A DNA stretch of 11,804 bases, taken from the NCBI GenBank assembly GCA_037444445.1, contig JBBIMK010000042.1, positions 1 through 11,804 of the forward strand. Reading direction: 5' to 3'. The stretch is from a bacterium (lineage in GTDB: Bacteria > UBP7 > UBA6624 > JBBIMK01). Under the pieces are notes generated by a model, which made no database searches, was not told the DNA's origin, and saw only the letters and a program-made list of their open reading frames with translations. Shown here piece after piece: positions 5,954 through 11,501 of the stretch (the stretch's first letter is position 1; each line of letters opens with the position of its first letter). Made by a program: the position numbers and the translations under genes.

Positions 5954-6904
5954 TCAGGTGCTCCTTTCCTGTGAGGAGGTTAAGGCAATAAACACATCCT
6001 CCACAGTGGCACGGGAGGGAAGAACGAAGACTTCCAGCCCCAGATTCTGGTAGAGTTGCTGATTCAGGGAAGCATCATCCAGTTCACTCCGAACGAGCAT
6101 GTGAACGGTGTTTCCATATACAGTGGCGCGCAGGATGCCTTCCATACGGCGAAGGATATGCAGTTTTTCGCTGGCGCCAGCAAGATGGAAGTCTGCCCAT
6201 CGGGTGCCCGGCGGGGTGATTCCTGCCATCTGGGTGAGTTGCTCCGGGGGTCCCAGAGCCAGAAGGCGGGAGAAGTAGATATATCCCAGTCGTCCGCATC
6301 GCTCCGCTTCATCCATAGAGTGAGTCGTGATGAACAGGGTCTTCCCCTGTCCGGAGAGTTCAAACAGGATATTCCAGATTTCTGCTCGTGCCACGGGGTC
6401 TATGCCGGCAGTAGGCTCGTCCAGGAATAGCACCGGCGGGTCGTGCAGCAGCCCGCAGGCAAGGGACAAACGCATCTTCCAGCCCCCTGAAAGGCTGCCC
6501 GTAATCTGGCGAAGATACGGTGATAGGGATAGCCACTTCCCTATCTCATCCATTCGCTTCCGAAAGGGTCGTCCCTTCAAGCCGTAGAGATTACCGAAGA
6601 ACTCCAGATTTTCCTGCACCGTGAGGTCGGAATACAGGCTGAACCGCTGGGGGACATAACCGATGACCTGTTTGACCCTTTCCGATTGTCGCGTGCAATC
6701 GTAGTTCAGGACTCGGGCTTCTCCGCTGTTGGGCTCCAGCACTCCGCAGAGGATGCGAATCAGTGTGGACTTACCGCTTCCGTTGGGGCCTAAGAAGCCG
6801 AAAACCTCCCCCCGATGAACGCTTAAGGTTACATCGGAGAGTGCGGTGATGGGGCCGAAGGTGCGACACACATGCTCCGCTGAGATGGTGACTTCCGCAT
6901 TCAT
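5954..6904 (-). CDS. ABC transporter ATP-binding protein (single NBD, YbhF/CcmA-like)
   Basis: Walker A GPNGSGKST, Q-loop, signature LSGGWKMRL, Walker B VLFLDEPTAGID, H-loop TTHSM, plus a ~90-aa C-terminal extension. There is an ATGA start/stop overlap with the HlyD gene at 6901-6904. Confidence 0.92.
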   Translation of the reverse strand: MNAEVTISAEHVCRTFGPITALSDVTLSVHRGEVFGFLGPNGSGKSTLIRILCGVLEPNSGEARVLNYDCTRQSERVKQVIGYVPQRFSLYSDLTVQENLEFFGNLYGLKGRPFRKRMDEIGKWLSLSPYLRQITGSLSGGWKMRLSLACGLLHDPPVLFLDEPTAGIDPVARAEIWNILFELSGQGKTLFITTHSMDEAERCGRLGYIYFSRLLALGPPEQLTQMAGITPPGTRWADFHLAGASEKLHILRRMEGILRATVYGNTVHMLVRSELDDASLNQQLYQNLGLEVFVLPSRATVEDVFIALTSSQERST

Positions 6905-8022
6905 CGGAGCGGAAGGGAGGCGTTCACATTCATCCCCGCCCTGAGAACCGCCGGCGGGTTCACGGGGCGAGCCTTCACACGATACACTTGATTGATACGC
7001 TCCTCGGGGGTGTAGATATTTCGCGGGGTGAATTCTGCTTCCCGGCTGATGTAGAAGATTTCTGCCTCAAAAGGCTGGTGAGGATACGGGTCGGCAACGA
7101 TTCGGAGTCGTGTGCCTACTGCCAGTTTATTCAGGGCGCTCTCGGGCACAAAGAGTTCAATCCAGATGTCGGAGGTATTCAGGAAAAAGAGGACGGGCTG
7201 ACCCGGGGCGGCAATTTCGCCGGGCTGAATCAGCACCGTTTCTACGACGCCATCGTCGGGTGCGAAAATGGACAGGTCGGCAATGTCCAGTTCCAGACGC
7301 CTGATTTCCGCTTGAACCTGCCTGACCCGGGCTTCTGCGACGGCTAACTGGTTGGGCGTTGCCCCAGCCAGAAGCCGCTGAAGCACCGCTTTCCGGGCCG
7401 CCACCGAAGCCTCAGCGGCTTCAATCTCCTCCTTTCGCAAGCCAGCGGTCACCTTTGCCAGCCGCTCCCGGGCGGCGTCCAGTTGTGCCAGGAGGGCATC
7501 CCGTCTGGCGATGGCGGTATCCCGGTCGGAGGCGCTCACCGCTCCTTCCTCAAACAGGCGAAGCACCCTCTCCGCCCGCCTCTGTGCTTCCTCATATTGT
7601 GCCTGGAGGGCGGAGACCTCCTTTTCTGCTGCGGCAATGTCCTCTGCCCGGAAGCCTGATAGGGCCTGGCGGTATTGGGCTTCTGCCCCGGCGAGTTCAG
7701 CCCGTGCACGCTCAATTTCCTCCTTCGTGGCACCTGCTTTGAGGTCTAAAAACTGAGCCTCCGCCCCTGTTAGAGATTCCTCTAACACCGCCTTCTGAGC
7801 CCGGAGTTTAGAATCATCCAGCCGTGCCAGGATTTCCCCCTTCTTCGCCGTCTGTCCTTCCTTCACAAAAATCTCAACGACCGAGCCGCCCATCCGGCTT
7901 CCAAGGGCATATTCCTGCACTCTCACCATACCCGAGATTTCATACGCACCTGCACCGCAAGAAACGCTCCCATACACCAGAAAAATCCACACGCTAACCC
8001 GTATCGCCAGATGCTTTCCCAT
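6901..8022 (-). CDS. HlyD-family periplasmic adaptor / secretion protein (YbhG-like)
   Basis: This is the track ORF 6901..8280 trimmed to ATG 8022 (MGKHLAIRVSVWIFLVYGSVSC...), which follows GGAGAGAGGG. The upstream part of the ORF is antisense to the tRNA. It has a signal anchor, a lipoyl-like segment (VKEGQTAKKGEILARLDD), a long Ala/Glu/Arg-rich coiled coil, and a beta-barrel C-terminus (DIWIELFVPE). Confidence 0.85.
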   Translation of the reverse strand: MGKHLAIRVSVWIFLVYGSVSCGAGAYEISGMVRVQEYALGSRMGGSVVEIFVKEGQTAKKGEILARLDDSKLRAQKAVLEESLTGAEAQFLDLKAGATKEEIERARAELAGAEAQYRQALSGFRAEDIAAAEKEVSALQAQYEEAQRRAERVLRLFEEGAVSASDRDTAIARRDALLAQLDAARERLAKVTAGLRKEEIEAAEASVAARKAVLQRLLAGATPNQLAVAEARVRQVQAEIRRLELDIADLSIFAPDDGVVETVLIQPGEIAAPGQPVLFFLNTSDIWIELFVPESALNKLAVGTRLRIVADPYPHQPFEAEIFYISREAEFTPRNIYTPEERINQVYRVKARPVNPPAVLRAGMNVNASLPLR

Positions 8023-8097
8023 CCCTCTCTCCGCTCTCCTTTCGCAGAGTTTCCGCTTTTTTGAAAGAAACCGTTCCTGCCACCTGTGCCGATTACA

Positions 8098-8106
8098 ATC
8101 ATACCA
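8098..8106 (-). promoter_or_regulatory. extended -10 promoter element TGGTATGAT for the HlyD/ABC operon
   Basis: The minus strand reads TGG (8106-8104) TATGAT (8103-8098), about 75 nt upstream of ATG 8022. It is divergent from the tRNA-His promoter. Confidence 0.35.
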
Positions 8107-8131
8107 CCAACAATCTACGCACCCGAAACAT

Positions 8132-8158
8132 TTGAGAAGGAGCGACGGATGGTATAAT
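8132..8158 (+). promoter_or_regulatory. promoter of tRNA-His: -35 TTGAGA, 15-nt spacer, extended -10 TGGTATAAT
   Basis: TTGAGA at 8132-8137, TG at 8150-8151, TATAAT at 8153-8158. The tRNA G1 lies 13 nt downstream at 8172. Confidence 0.5.
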
Positions 8159-8171
8159 AATCTTGCTGAAT

Positions 8172-8244
8172 GCAGGCGTAGCTCAATGGTCAGAGCGCCT
8201 GACTGTGGATCAGGAGGTTGTGGGTTCGAGCCCCACCGCCTGTA
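8172..8244 (+). tRNA. tRNA-His (anticodon GTG), 73 nt, no encoded CCA and no encoded G-1
   Basis: Hand-folded cloverleaf. Acceptor GCAGGCG/CGCCTGT (G1-U72 wobble, then 6 Watson-Crick pairs), U8. D stem GCTC/GAGC with a GG-containing loop. Anticodon stem CCTGA/TCAGG with loop CTGTGGA (anticodon GTG at 8205-8207). 5-nt variable loop AGGTT. T stem GTGGG/CCCAC with loop TTCGAGC. Discriminator A at 8244, followed by TGG. Confidence 0.9.
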
Positions 8245-8249
8245 TGGGA

Positions 8250-9719
8250 ATGCCCGACAAAAATCGTCGGGTCGCAGCATTGAATAGAGGAGGAAATTCT
8301 ACGGGGAAAATCAGGGTCAGGCTATTGAAGGGGTTTCGGGATTATTTGCCGGAGCAGATGATTGCCCGCCAGCAGGTGCTGGAAAAGATTCGCCGGGTGT
8401 ACGAGCGATACGGCTTCATGCCCCTGGATACGCCCGCTTTAGAGCATGCCGAAGTCCTTCTGGGGAGATACGGAGAGGAATCGGATAAGCAGATTTACCG
8501 ATTTATCACGAAGGATGAGGAAGATGTGGCATTGCGGTTTGATTTAACCGTGCCTCTGGCTCGCGTGGTGGAGCAATATGCGGATTTACCTCTTCCGTTC
8601 AAGCGGTATCAACTGGCGGCAGTGTGGCGGGTGGATAAGCCGGACCCCGGACGGTTTCGGGAGTTTTTGCAGTTTGATGTGGACATCGTGGGGAGCGGGA
8701 GTATACTCGCGGATGCTGAAATTATCGCCGTGATGTGCGAAGCGATGGAAGAACTGGGCGTTCGCTATCAGGTCCGCTTCAGCAGTCGCAAGGTGTTGAA
8801 TCTGCTGGTGAAGTGGGCAAAGGTGCCGAACCCACTCACATTGCCCGTATTTCGTGTGCTGGATAAAATGGACCGCATCGGTTTTGAGGGCGTGGCGCAG
8901 GAACTCACCGGCGGTAGAGTGGATGCCTCCGGCGACCGCATCCCGGGACTGGGGCTTACCGGAGAGCAGGTGGATACCATTCAAAGATTCCTCCACATCC
9001 CGCATCAAACTCGTCAGGAAGCCATTACCGGGTTGAAAAACCTTTTCAATGGTGTGGAAGGAGCGGAGGTAGCCATTGGACAGTTAGAAGAACTCTCCGG
9101 GCACTTGAATGTGATGGGCATCCTGGAGGAGCAGGCACGAATTGACCCGGGGCTTGCGAGGGGGCTGGATTATTATACGGGCCCCATTTATGAGGCTTCT
9201 CTACTGGATGCGCCCGAGTTCGGCAGTGTGATAGGCGGAGGGCGGTATGATGAACTCATCCAGCGCAGAGGGGTTTTCATCCCTGCCACCGGCTCCTCTA
9301 TCGGTGTGGACCGCCTGATGTCCGCACTGGAGAAGATTCAGGGAAGAGCAAAGAAACGCTCCCCCGCTCAGGTGCTCGTTACGGTTATGAACCCTTCCTT
9401 CTTGCTGGAATATCAAAAAATAGCCCGGGAGTTGCGTAATGCCGGCATTCACACAGATTTGTATATGGGGCAGGAAAAAAACATCGGGAAGCAAATCCAG
9501 TTCGCCGACCTGCTGGGTATTCCCCTCGTGATTATCGCAGGAGAGGACGAGTTCTCTAAAGGCATCGTCTCGGTGAAAGACCTCAGCGCAGGGAGGGTAA
9601 AGAGCCGGGAAATCGCCAGCCGCCAGGCCTGGCTGAAGGAACGAGCCGGCCAGGTTTCCATCCCACGACCTCAACTCGTCCAGGAAATCCTCCGACTGCT
9701 CCGTGAGGCGAAGGGATGA
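8250..9719 (+). CDS. hisS: histidine--tRNA ligase (HisRS), divergent archaeal/eukaryote-like / Caulobacter-like type
   Basis: KGFRDYLP N-terminal motif, histidine-A LRFDLTVPLAR, motif 2 WRVDKPDPGRFREFLQFDVDIVG, motif 3 GGGRYDELI, histidine-B PATGSSIGVDRLM. The C-terminal anticodon-binding domain (VLVTVMNPS...GIPLVIIAGEDEFSKGIVSVKDL) rules out HisZ. The end at 9719 is firm. The start is uncertain: the track start 8163 overlaps the tRNA, and in-frame candidates are ATG 8244, ATG 8250, TTG 8280 and TTG 8325. Confidence 0.88.
   Translation: MPDKNRRVAALNRGGNSTGKIRVRLLKGFRDYLPEQMIARQQVLEKIRRVYERYGFMPLDTPALEHAEVLLGRYGEESDKQIYRFITKDEEDVALRFDLTVPLARVVEQYADLPLPFKRYQLAAVWRVDKPDPGRFREFLQFDVDIVGSGSILADAEIIAVMCEAMEELGVRYQVRFSSRKVLNLLVKWAKVPNPLTLPVFRVLDKMDRIGFEGVAQELTGGRVDASGDRIPGLGLTGEQVDTIQRFLHIPHQTRQEAITGLKNLFNGVEGAEVAIGQLEELSGHLNVMGILEEQARIDPGLARGLDYYTGPIYEASLLDAPEFGSVIGGGRYDELIQRRGVFIPATGSSIGVDRLMSALEKIQGRAKKRSPAQVLVTVMNPSFLLEYQKIARELRNAGIHTDLYMGQEKNIGKQIQFADLLGIPLVIIAGEDEFSKGIVSVKDLSAGRVKSREIASRQAWLKERAGQVSIPRPQLVQEILRLLREAKG
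8253..8271 (+). other. stem-loop in the tRNA 3' trailer / hisS 5' region
   Basis: CCCGAC (8253-8258) and GTCGGG (8266-8271) form a perfect 6-bp stem with a 7-nt loop AAAAATC. No U-tract follows, so it is not a canonical terminator. Confidence 0.35.
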
Positions 9720-9782: not shown

Positions 9783-11501
9783 ATGATGCGGGCGTATCCG
9801 GAGGAGATTCGCAAAGTGAGAGTGGATGGCCAGTCGTTGACCATCCCTCAGGTGGTGGCGGTGGCACGCAACCCGGCGGTGAAAATCCTCTGCCCGCCCC
9901 CTCGTCTGAATGCCCTGAAAAAAATGCATCTCAGGGTCATCCAGAAGTGTGAGGAAGCCTTTGACTTTTATACGCACACTCCTGACGATGAAAAACGGGG
10001 AGTTTTGATGCGGGAAAAATCCATTTACGGCGTCACCACAGGCTTCGGGGCTATGAAAAAAACCTATCTGAAATCCCTCAAAGATGCGGAAGCATTGCAG
10101 AAGCAATTGGTCATCAGCCATGCGGCGGGCGTGGGGGAGAAATTCACCATAGAAGAGGTTCGTGCCCTGATGCTGATTCGGATGAATACCTTGATGTCAG
10201 GGAAGTGTGGGGTTCGCCCGGAAGTGGTGGAACGCCTGCAAAAAATGCTCCAGATGGGCATACATCCTGAAATCCCGTCCCAGGGGTCGGTGGGCGCCAG
10301 CGGAGACCTGGCTCCTCTGTCTCACCTGGCTCTGGCTTTCATCGGGGAAGGAGAAGCCAGAGTGCAGGGTAAGGTTTATGCCGGCAGAGCCCTCCAAAAA
10401 AAATTCAAGAGCCTGGGCCTGGAGCCCACCTTCTCTCTGCAGGTGAAAGAGGGGTTAGCCCTGGTGAATGGCACTGCGGTGATGACAGCCATAGCCGCCC
10501 TGACTTGCTACGATGCGGAGCGTCTTTTACAATATGCCGACCTATCCGGCGCTATGACCTTAGAGGCGACCCTGGGCTCCACTCGCCCCTTTGACGAACT
10601 GGCGGAGAAAACCTTCGCAACGGGGGGACAGAAGGAATCCGCACGCCGGGTCAGGCATCTGATTCGGGGCAGTCAACTGGTGAACCGGAAAGAGGCAGTC
10701 CACGATGTCTATTCCATTCGCTGTATTCCCCAGGTTCACGGAACGGTGAGGGAAGCCCTTCGCTTCGCTCGCTTTCTGGTGGAAAAGGAACTGAATGCCA
10801 TCTCCGATGACCCCATCTTCTTCACAGAAGAAGAAATCCGCCAGCACCCACCCATAGATGGCTGGCTGACCCGCCTTCACTTTGAAGTGGGCAACTTCCA
10901 CGGTCAGATGGTCTCCCTAACTATGGACACTCTCGGCATTGCCCTGACCACCCTGGGAGCCATCTCGGAACGCAGAATTCAATTGCTATTAGACAAGAAT
11001 TTCAACGAGGGCTTGCCCCCGAATTTGATTCACAATCCAGAAGGGCTCTATTCCGGGCTGATGCTGGCGCAGTACACCGCCGCCTCCCTCGTTTCTGAGA
11101 ATAAAATTTTAGCCCATCCCGCCTCTGTGGATTCCATCCCTACCTCCGCCGGTATGGAGGATTATGTAAGTATGGGAACCATTTCCGCACGGAAAGCCCG
11201 AAAAATCTTAGAAAATGTGGAGCATATTCTCGCTATAGAACTCCTCTGTGCCTCTCAGGCTCTCTCCTTCCGAACGGGTGAACTGGATTGGAAGCCCCCG
11301 GACCCCGGTGCAGGAAAGACTATGGGGCAAGCGGGCCAGGGCACCACCACCGCCCTGAAAGCCATCCGAAAGGTGCTGCCACCTCTTATCGCTGACCGAA
11401 GGCTGGATGAAGACATCCACAAAATACGCCAGTGGATGCTCTCCACCCCACTCACCTCTTTTTTGGGGCCCTCTTCGCGAAGGAAGAGACAAAAGTTGTA
11501 G
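9783..11501 (+). CDS. hutH: histidine ammonia-lyase family (MIO-dependent aromatic amino acid lyase) protein
   Basis: 572-aa ORF with AGGTGA 9 nt upstream. MIO-forming Ala-Ser-Gly in SQGSVGASGDLAPLSHLAL, IYGVTTGFG, and LQKQLVISHAAGVG. The Ser-His at the substrate-selectivity position is as in histidine ammonia-lyases, versus His-Leu in TAL and Phe-Leu in PAL. The N-terminal pattern V.VDGQSLTIPQVVAVAR is typical for the family. Confidence 0.85.
   Translation: MMRAYPEEIRKVRVDGQSLTIPQVVAVARNPAVKILCPPPRLNALKKMHLRVIQKCEEAFDFYTHTPDDEKRGVLMREKSIYGVTTGFGAMKKTYLKSLKDAEALQKQLVISHAAGVGEKFTIEEVRALMLIRMNTLMSGKCGVRPEVVERLQKMLQMGIHPEIPSQGSVGASGDLAPLSHLALAFIGEGEARVQGKVYAGRALQKKFKSLGLEPTFSLQVKEGLALVNGTAVMTAIAALTCYDAERLLQYADLSGAMTLEATLGSTRPFDELAEKTFATGGQKESARRVRHLIRGSQLVNRKEAVHDVYSIRCIPQVHGTVREALRFARFLVEKELNAISDDPIFFTEEEIRQHPPIDGWLTRLHFEVGNFHGQMVSLTMDTLGIALTTLGAISERRIQLLLDKNFNEGLPPNLIHNPEGLYSGLMLAQYTAASLVSENKILAHPASVDSIPTSAGMEDYVSMGTISARKARKILENVEHILAIELLCASQALSFRTGELDWKPPDPGAGKTMGQAGQGTTTALKAIRKVLPPLIADRRLDEDIHKIRQWMLSTPLTSFLGPSSRRKRQKL

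Follow-up and report, generated by a model that had tools for sequence, protein, structure and literature searches.

A histidine tRNA gene without G-1 and its linked synthetase gene, with relatives in many bacterial phyla

The guanosine at position -1 (G-1) of tRNA-His is taken to be among the most universal of all tRNA identity elements. Among bacteria its loss has been viewed as a synapomorphy that arose once, in one alpha-proteobacterial clade, and it has even served as a marker for the placement of SAR11. The alpha-proteobacterial system has long been seen as either a unique invention or a eukaryotic import. The stretch of DNA analyzed here (all 11,804 nucleotides of it, hereafter the window) holds a tRNA-His gene that encodes no G-1, and the question is how such a tRNA would be processed and recognized in a bacterium that does not appear to be an alpha-proteobacterium. 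We consider it likely that the window carries a self-contained, G-1-independent module for decoding histidine, consisting of a promoter, the tRNA-His gene, the histidyl-tRNA synthetase (HisRS) gene hisS, and a gene resembling those for histidine ammonia-lyase (HAL). The anatomy of these genes, the diagnostic features of the enzyme, and the co-occurrence and linkage across phyla of this enzyme type with a tRNA-His that has G1•U72 and a base other than C at position 73 are all direct observations.

The known bacterial precedent is the pair of the RRCH alpha-proteobacteria (Caulobacter crescentus, Sinorhizobium, Rhodobacter, and most SAR11), in which a tRNA-His and a HisRS of the type without G-1 (deltaG-1) were reportedly recognized by Wang in 2007 and by Ardell and Andersson in 2006. 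As defined in the literature, the deltaG-1 class has no G-1, A73, G1-U72, and a 9-nt D-loop with U20a (PMC3064791), and its HisRS is divergent with several inserts, of which the one in the anticodon-binding domain is thought to read the anticodon (PMC3064791, PMC3245924). The motif-2 Gln that contacts G-1:C73 is replaced by Gly in RRCH HisRS (PMC3937112), and loss of this Gln together with the insert has been linked to lost recognition of G-1:C73 and gained recognition of the anticodon (PMC3937112, PMC3064791, PMC3245924).

The tRNA and the enzyme beside it

ARAGORN finds one tRNA in the window, a tRNA-His(gtg) spanning 8171..8245 on the + strand. In the end-to-end alignment of Rfam model RF00005 with 8172-8244 (74.5 bits against a gathering score of 29; E = 3e-15), each of the seven acceptor pairs is standard. 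ARAGORN extends the gene by one base at either end compared with Rfam, which leaves positions -1, 72, and 73 as they are. The acceptor stem consists of G1•U72 (8172/8243), C2-G71, A3-U70, G4-C69, G5-C68, C6-G67, and G7-C66, followed by the discriminator A73 at 8244. The anticodon loop is CUGUGGA (with G37 and A38), the variable loop has 5 nt, and the 3' flank reads TGGGA, such that no CCA is encoded. An earlier, sequence-only reading of this locus had reported T at 8171, T at position 72, A at 8244, a GTG anticodon in an otherwise canonical cloverleaf, and the missing CCA, and had proposed a tRNA finder and a covariance model as a check; each of these bases is right, and both programs, when run on the window, place T at -1 and A at 73, and neither G-1 nor C73.

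The same reading had likened this combination of bases to the identity set of Caulobacter. The comparison holds, in that the tRNA has no G-1, A73, G1•U72, and C2-G71 (printed as 'C3-G71' in Yuan 2011 and taken here as C2-G71), as in the published deltaG-1 definition (PMC3064791), and the adjacent HisRS has both of the enzyme correlates. The rule that the D-loop is always 9 nt with U20a is broken: the D-loop of the window tRNA has 8 nt (AAUGGUCA).

A full-length hisS, overlooked along with the HAL-like gene in the sequence-only reading, lies about 80 nt downstream of the tRNA on the same strand. Its product scores 362.7 bits against TIGR00442 (cut-off, 286.75) and contains the Pfam domains tRNA-synt_His and HGTP_anticodon. 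In its motif-2 loop, VWRVDKPDPGRFREF, Asp occupies the position of Q118 in the E. coli enzyme, whose loop is MFRHERPQKGRYRQF (motif-2 region, FRHERPQKGRYRQF, its Gln being Q118 as counted in the E. coli sequence). The anticodon-binding domain has an insert of about 20 aa (RVKSREIASRQAWLKERAGQ) that aligns with the RRCH insert, and there is a segment of about 40 aa in the insertion domain (GRVDASGDRIPGLGL...). All three of these regions align with the HisRS of Rhodobacter, Ruegeria, Sinorhizobium, and Methylobacterium. The six canonical enzymes compared (those of E. coli, Parabacteroides, Vescimonas, and Embleya, and two from sister lineages) have ERPQxGR, with the Gln kept in 6/6, and are without the anticodon-domain insert, Embleya having only a short unrelated stretch at that site; the window HisRS, its family, and the four RRCH enzymes have [DE]KP[DG]PGR and an insert of 17-25 aa. 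By both published hallmarks of the enzyme, i.e., the missing motif-2 Gln and the inserted segment in the anticodon-binding domain, the window HisRS appears to be of the deltaG-1 type. All three features of canonical histidine identity (G-1, C73, and a HisRS of the Gln118 type) are therefore missing, their places being taken by T, A, and Asp.

With canonical systems such as those of E. coli and T. thermophilus, the window pair shares the amino acid, the GUG anticodon, and the architecture of a class IIa catalytic domain plus HGTP domain. It differs in that canonical systems keep the G-1:C73 pair, by shifting where RNase P cleaves, and read it with the motif-2 loop (Gln118 and an Arg cluster). 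Only 25% of residues are identical between the window HisRS and the E. coli enzyme. A tblastn search of PLSDB, which comprises plasmid and chromid records including mislabelled chromosomes of Sinorhizobium, Shinella, and Methylobacterium, returned RRCH alpha-proteobacteria as all of the best named matches, with 36-42% identity over 99% of the length including the insert (40-42% for the closest); HisRS from Bacteroides, Prevotella, and Firmicutes reached 31-33%, in alignments that end before the insert. Comparison with PDB entries gave 208 bits for human cytoplasmic HisRS (4g84), about 150 bits for the T. brucei and T. cruzi enzymes, and about 85 bits for those of E. coli and T. thermophilus, suggesting that the window HisRS belongs to a broad eukaryote/archaeal-like class.

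Close relatives are scarce. A collection of 5.8 billion proteins contains two, L001 (96% identity) and L002 (80%), with all others at or below 58%, and among the relatives found in genomes representing one per GTDB species none is more than 57% identical. A single-protein metagenome scan with the HisRS found no relatives, and a metagenome scan with the tRNA pattern of this lineage gave 0 matches, leaving the window, L001, and L002 as the only known members. In both relatives tRNA-His, hisS, and HAL are arranged as in the window, and the tRNA-His has T at -1, G1•U72, and A73. The D-loop of L001 likewise has 8 nt; the tRNA of L002 has a compensatory change in the T-stem and a 9-nt D-loop with U20a (AACUGGUUA).

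The AspRS (aspartyl-tRNA synthetase) encoded next to the L002 cassette is 57% identical to that of an unclassified metagenome-assembled genome (MAG), 'bacterium JZ-2024 1', about 50% to those of thermophilic Firmicutes, and 48-49% to those of Nitrospirota, and none of its top 120 matches is alpha-proteobacterial. Because the HisRS has few close relatives and alpha-proteobacteria are absent from the top AspRS matches, the window organism is a poorly sampled, deep-branching bacterium and not an alpha-proteobacterium. That the host is not alpha-proteobacterial had been surmised from the window's neighboring genes, and both enzymes bear this out, the HisRS being at most 42% identical to RRCH enzymes and 57% identical to Acidobacteriota/Ignavibacteria-type ones.

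A family outside the alpha-proteobacteria

At least 556 species genomes encode a relative of the window HisRS (two-motif scan, one genome per GTDB species), which agrees with an earlier suggestion that the system may be more widely distributed. Our detailed set consists of the best 80 of these genomes, whose HisRS are 49-57% identical to that of the window. Acidobacteriota are represented among the 80 by Thermoanaerobaculia, Blastocatellia, Holophagales, and Solibacteraceae, and the other groups are Ignavibacteriota together with MAGs labelled Bacteroidota/Chlorobi, Planctomycetota, WOR-3, Zixibacteria, Nitrospirota, Kryptoniota, and Deferrimicrobium.

The enzyme is often accompanied by its tRNA. 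ARAGORN detected a tRNA-His, and almost no other tRNA, near hisS in 46/80 family loci; of the 78 loci with enough upstream sequence, 36 have it upstream of hisS at a distance of 250 nt or less and on the same strand, as do 23 of 26 from Acidobacteriota. In no case (85 loci) was there a second tRNA-His or hisS within 10 kb. A HAL-like gene follows hisS on the same strand, 12-333 nt downstream, in 60 of the 76 family loci with enough sequence (L013 and L018-L096), so that the conserved unit is tRNA-His, hisS, HAL, the same as in the window. The triad that forms the MIO group of these HAL-like proteins is ASG in 27, SSG in 29, ACG in 7, and GSG in 2, and the dipeptide at the site of the His-type 'SH' is SH in 50 of 65 and NH in 15. 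The window protein scores 526 bits against NF006871 (cut-off, 524) and 507 bits against TIGR01225, which is under that model's cut-off of 539, and has an N-terminal extension of about 70 aa that lies outside the HAL models. Neither hutU nor hutI is found beside the HAL-like gene in the window or in L002.

We parsed 51 tRNAs (38 distinct), comprising the 46 linked ones and those of the window, L001, L002, a TA06-like contig, and an NCBI MAG. Every one (51/51, or 38/38 distinct) has the seven standard acceptor pairs, G1•U72, and C2-G71. Position 73 is A in 44, G in 7, and C in none; the -1 base, available for 50, is T in 25, C in 8, A in 6, and G in 11 (22%); and the D-loop ranges from 7 to 10 nt, with 9 nt in 33/51. 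What is invariant is thus U72, the anticodon, and G37, and what varies is the base at 73, the base at -1, and how large the D-loop is. Double-sided changes are plentiful among the 38 distinct tRNAs at pairs 3-70, 5-68, 6-67, 29-41, 49-65, 50-64, and 51-63, but pair 1-72 is G•U in all 38 and is never repaired to a Watson-Crick pair. Because neighboring pairs of the stem covary freely while 1-72 does not change, the G1•U72 wobble itself is under selection.

Some members depart from the commonest form. G73 occurs together with G1•U72 in L011, L034, L063, L074, L075, L083, and L094, which are a TA06-like contig, one WOR-3 MAG, Holophagales, and some Thermoanaerobaculia. Most of these G73 members encode CCA, as do many from Acidobacteriota and Nitrospirota; tRNA genes of the Ignavibacteria-like, Planctomycetota, and window-lineage members mostly do not. 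Logan contig L012 (7520-7560) has a TA06-like HisRS identical to that of L011 (9866-9995), and its tRNA-His is truncated at the anticodon loop, with ...GCCTGACTG before the break and ATCAAGCGGG after it; the 3' half of the tRNA and the spacer are removed, by either an assembly artefact or a natural deletion. One Acidobacteriota-like lineage (L009/L010, 11500-15900) has a hisS of the deltaG-1 type and no tRNA-His within 10 kb. There, hisS adjoins a histidine biosynthesis cluster on the opposite strand (hisI, hisF, hisA, hisH, and hisB-like Pfam hits), with a HEPN/nucleotidyltransferase pair in between.

A neighbor-joining tree (93 HisRS sequences, 465 columns, 100 bootstraps) places this family relative to the RRCH enzymes. 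The four RRCH enzymes form a clade with a bootstrap of 99, the non-alpha-proteobacterial family does so with 94, and the two stand together against the canonical outgroups with 70. The window HisRS falls outside the RRCH clade, next to sequences from WOR-3, Nitrospirota, Zixibacteria, and Deferrimicrobium, and it lacks an 8-aa insert that is specific to RRCH. The two groups are each other's closest relatives among the sampled sequences, and the tree suggests that the window HisRS is a member of a large family outside the alpha-proteobacteria, sister to the alpha-proteobacterial system. A recent transfer from an alpha-proteobacterium, which we also considered, is ruled out by the 40-42% HisRS identity and the sister position.

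The likeness between the two groups extends from the enzyme to the tRNA. RRCH tRNA-His, for which our comparison rests on the published consensus, shares with that of the window the absence of G-1, G1•U72, C2-G71, A73, and G37, and RRCH HisRS likewise lacks the motif-2 Gln and has both the insertion-domain segment (GR.D.SGD...G.GL) and the anticodon-domain insert. The two groups also differ: RRCH enzymes always have Gly at the Q118 position, where the window family has Asp or Gly; the 8-aa insert follows YYTGPVFEA in RRCH HisRS and is missing from the window family; the RRCH D-loop is always 9 nt with U20a, as opposed to 7-10 nt in the family and 8 in the window; and A73 is the rule in RRCH, whereas some family members have G73. 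The two RRCH loci examined have hisZ after hisS (and then hisG in L003), and no tRNA-His was seen near it, in contrast to the window family, in which tRNA-His is linked to hisS and a HAL-like gene comes next. At the nucleotide level, a blastn search of PLSDB with the window tRNA showed no special similarity, its matches in RRCH genomes being to tRNA-Asp, Trp, Thr, and others, with none to His, and when a GC-rich family tRNA was used as the probe for RRCH tRNA-His, tRNAs of E. coli phage-plasmids dominated.

Two other systems invite comparison. The protists Acanthamoeba castellanii and Trypanosoma brucei have, like the window, a tRNA-His without G-1 and with A73, and a non-canonical HisRS, and the parts of the source available to us do not describe a requirement for G1•U72 (PMC4338351). 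These G-1-independent systems belong to independent eukaryotic lineages, and their relationship to the window was compared by PDB scores only. In pylT-pylS, a tRNA of unusual identity also lies beside its dedicated synthetase, which permits the co-transfer of a mutually dependent orthogonal pair; the analogy is one of organization, since the amino acid and the codons that the window pair serves are standard and there is no homology to Pyl.

Processing, charging, and competing explanations

How the tRNA is made and read can be pictured by combining these features with the biochemistry of Caulobacter. The tRNA would probably be transcribed from the promoter-like site upstream of it and likely together with hisS, because there is no terminator between them and their short spacing is conserved. 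RNase P would cut at the ordinary -1/+1 site, there being no G-1:C73 pair to shift the cleavage, so as to yield a mature tRNA that starts at G1 and has a 7-bp acceptor stem. Because no CCA is encoded, the 3' trailer would be removed endonucleolytically after A73 and CCA added enzymatically. HisRS would then read the GUG anticodon (by way of the insert in its anticodon-binding domain), G1•U72, and, to a lesser degree, base 73, but not G-1:C73.

The same logic of charging has been shown experimentally for Caulobacter crescentus (PMC3064791), in which changes to U72 (U72C) and to the anticodon cost 91-1000-fold, and A73C, an added G-1, the loss of U20a, and G37A cost only 2-5-fold (G37A, 3x; removal of U20a from the native tRNA, 2-fold; added G-1, a 5-fold lower efficiency). 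The positions that are invariant in the window family are the major Caulobacter determinants, plus the minor one G37. This pattern, judged from aligned genes, matches the biochemistry, with major determinants invariant and minor ones variable.

Several considerations weigh against this picture. In the window lineage we infer the mature 5' end, the determinants of aminoacylation, and co-transcription alike. The 8-nt D-loop of the E. coli tRNA is an antideterminant for Caulobacter HisRS (PMC3064791), and that of the window tRNA also has 8 nt; where RRCH enzymes have Gly at the Q118 position, the window enzyme has Asp; and G does occur at -1 in some family members, although only in GC-rich Thermoanaerobaculia and the TA06-like contig, whose close sisters have A. 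The motif-2 signature was part of the scan pattern and is uniform in the 80 loci by construction, which is not true of the anticodon-domain insert or the tRNA features, and the taxon labels, which are those of the MAG records, may be imprecise. Finally, our view covers the window only, and a second, canonical pair or a Thg1-like enzyme elsewhere in the genome is possible.

The first of these possibilities leads to the explanation that survives best among the alternatives, although we consider it improbable: the cassette might be an accessory or redundant copy, either mobile cargo or a HAL-linked module for histidine regulation, while a canonical pair does the bulk of translation. Besides the limited view, this would suit the tight association of tRNA, synthetase, and enzyme gene, which resembles transferable modules, and the mutual orthogonality of the canonical and deltaG-1 types (PMC3064791), which could let them coexist. 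In L001, moreover, a block of about 2.7 kb (10079-12855) lies between hisS and HAL relative to the window, with an AAA_15/AAA_21 ATPase, a DUF4276 protein, small open reading frames (ORFs), and a PhdYeFM-like antitoxin, and HAL is followed (14909-17261) by an MwoI-like restriction enzyme and an N6/N4 methyltransferase; these insertions next to the cassette look like those of defence islands.

The gene order in L002 argues for replacement and not addition. There, tRNA-His, hisS (463 aa), and HAL are followed by aspS and DUF8413/SpoIIM, and in L102, which is the nearest lineage by AspRS (64%), the order is hisS (423 aa), aspS, DUF8413/SpoIIM. The hisS of L102 is of the canonical E. coli type (FRYERPQAGRYRQFHQ, no inserts) and its product is 25% identical to the window HisRS; the hisS of 'bacterium JZ-2024 1' is canonical as well, and the HisRS of both L102 and L103 lack the anticodon-domain insert. 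The canonical enzyme is thus still present in sister lineages of the window organism, and the simplest reading of these gene orders would be that the cassette displaced a resident canonical hisS in situ in the L002 lineage, in line with an earlier suggestion of horizontal acquisition. Because the cassette takes the very slot of the canonical gene, its HisRS is probably the working enzyme and not a spare, an argument that stops short of proof. Other evidence also disfavors a redundant copy: the HisRS passes the threshold of the hisS equivalog model, the family occurs in its hundreds of genomes in housekeeping contexts (e.g., beside the histidine biosynthesis genes in L009), none of the 85 loci has a second tRNA-His or hisS within 10 kb, and the homologous pair is the sole tRNA-His/HisRS pair in RRCH alpha-proteobacteria (PMC3064791).

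Less probable still is a route in which RNase P cleavage is followed by the addition of G-1 opposite A73 by a Thg1-like 3'-5' nucleotidyltransferase and HisRS remains dependent on that G-1. A73 without an encoded G-1 is the eukaryotic arrangement and Thg1-like proteins do occur in scattered bacteria (PMC3245924), and the HisRS is far closer to structures of the eukaryotic/archaeal type than to bacterial ones. But the enzyme lacks the motif-2 Gln that is tied to G-1:C73 and has the insert of the Caulobacter type, for which an added G-1 costs 5-fold, and the G1•U72 that is invariant in 51 tRNAs is a Caulobacter determinant and not a eukaryotic one. The ten main ORFs of the window include no member of a Thg1 family, and the Pfam listings for the neighborhoods of the relatives show none either; in addition, bacterial Thg1-like enzymes favor templated addition opposite C73 (PMC3245924).

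We give slightly less credence to the idea that U-1 is retained and that a U-1:A73 pair shifts RNase P to the -2/-1 site, resulting in an 8-bp acceptor stem. T at -1 in 3/3 lineage members and in half of the family tRNAs, most of them with A73, would fit such a pair, as would the longer ARAGORN call, but U is the commonest -1 base of bacterial pre-tRNAs generally. The other half of the family has C, A, or G at -1, including close sisters that differ only there; covariation between -1 and 73 is not comparable to that of real stem pairs; and the HisRS features indicate a Caulobacter-like mode, for which an extra 5' base is mildly harmful. A non-functional relic or chance resemblance to a tRNA, for which only the unusual combination at -1, 72, and 73 speaks, is effectively refuted, because the tRNA is conserved with compensatory T-stem changes in relatives at 96% and 80% HisRS identity, and its Rfam score, perfect cloverleaf, upstream promoter-like site, and linkage to hisS across phyla also count against it.

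The surrounding sequence and the meaning of the cassette

The features of the module in the window are listed in Table 1. With either choice of -10 element, the predicted promoter would leave a leader of only a few nt before G1; a consensus scan of 7900-8500 found this 1 site where shuffled sequences gave an expectation of 0.4, and the GGTATAAT box is at equal distance from G1 in L001 and L002. There is no terminator-like site in 7900-8500 and hence none between tRNA and hisS, and when 7950-8450 was scanned permissively with Rfam for leader RNAs such as a T-box, the tRNA alone was returned. Because no U-run follows it, the small hairpin in the spacer is not terminator-like and may be a processing or stability element. 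It is kept in L001 despite indels that would change a reading frame, although the spacer as a whole folds no better than shuffled sequences (z = -0.23).

Table 1. Features of the tRNA-His/hisS/HAL region of the window
Feature	Coordinates	Strand	Basis and remarks
Predicted sigma-70-like promoter	8132..8161	+	TTGAGA 8132-8137, then TGG-TATAAT 8150-8158 (extended -10 type) or AATAAT 8156-8161
Position -1 of tRNA-His	8171..8171	+	T, vs G encoded by canonical bacterial tRNA-His genes (sequence)
tRNA-His(GUG) gene	8172..8244	+	ARAGORN; Rfam RF00005; family comparison
Small hairpin in tRNA-hisS spacer	8253..8271	+	CCCGAC / GUCGGG, 7-nt loop; no U-run after
Shine-Dalgarno-like sequence	8286..8293	+	AGAGGAGG, ahead of hisS; conserved in L001; AGAGG at equivalent place in L002
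hisS, G-1-independent (deltaG-1) type HisRS (putative)	8301..9719	+	TIGR00442; Pfam; alignments; PDB comparison
Histidine ammonia-lyase-like MIO enzyme	9783..11501	+	NF006871; Pfam Lyase_aromatic; ASG triad, SHAAGVG motif

Where translation of hisS begins is less straightforward. The only canonical start is TTG 8325, which has a weak Shine-Dalgarno sequence and lies inside the conserved N-terminal 'RLL-KGFRDY' motif. A strong one, GGAGG at 8289-8293, sits 7 nt ahead of an in-frame ACG at 8301, and this ACG is kept in all three members of the lineage (window 8286-8327; L001 8650-8690; L002 340-378); in L002 there is no other candidate after the stop at its position 322. TTG 8325 is the conservative choice, but the conserved 'RLL' and the Shine-Dalgarno spacing suggest an earlier start, possibly ACG 8301, and hisS may therefore use non-canonical ACG initiation.

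The genes on the other side of the tRNA (HlyD, ABC-2 transporter, MFS, ELM1-like, CMD, FHA) are on the opposite strand and apparently unrelated. A 459-aa ORF that runs antisense through the tRNA (6901..8280, -) is an over-extended HlyD-family adaptor gene, with homology confined to about 6901-7950, and an automatic gene call in L001 (P0001) likewise puts the start of hisS inside the tRNA. Antisense to the tRNA (8172-8245, -) there is also a sub-threshold match to RF04354 (Plastid-ycf2 5'UTR; 27.4 bits, gathering score 65.7), most likely a tRNA-like artefact of that model.

A 2023 review of tRNA identity (PMC9976931) and the papers of Mukai from 2017 and 2020 ascribe bacterial loss of G-1 to alpha-proteobacteria only. 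Searches of the full-text literature that was accessible turned up no report of a deltaG-1 system, or of a tRNA-His/hisS/HAL cassette, outside the alpha-proteobacteria, and a prior mention elsewhere is possible. The identity solution and the lineage of the enzyme are already known; what is new is the much wider taxonomic range, the sister clade, the relaxed rules for the D-loop and the discriminator, and the three-gene cassette. With this organization, the two parts of an otherwise incompatible identity system could pass to descendants or to other lineages as a unit. Going beyond this, we can entertain, although with less than even confidence, the notion that the cassette is an ancient, self-sufficient 'identity-swap' module that has spread in at least eight phyla, with the RRCH system as an offshoot and HAL as a functional third component. 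It is just as tentative that the canonical G-1:C73 system has been displaced in places by such a module, and that HAL, for example, ties histidine catabolism to charging capacity.

If the window does hold a G-1-independent module, then recognition of the anticodon and of G1•U72 by an insert-bearing HisRS would occur in hundreds of species of Acidobacteriota, Ignavibacteriota, Planctomycetota, and candidate phyla, and in a cassette this solution would travel with its tRNA. How the alpha-proteobacterial system arose would again be a question, one that can be tested by phylogeny with the new sister family, and there would be a natural case in which an incompatible tRNA/synthetase system replaced the resident one by co-transfer and in-situ displacement. 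The strongly conserved linkage to HAL is a separate lead. For genetic-code engineering, the family would offer many and varied HisRS/tRNA-His pairs, possibly orthogonal to that of E. coli.

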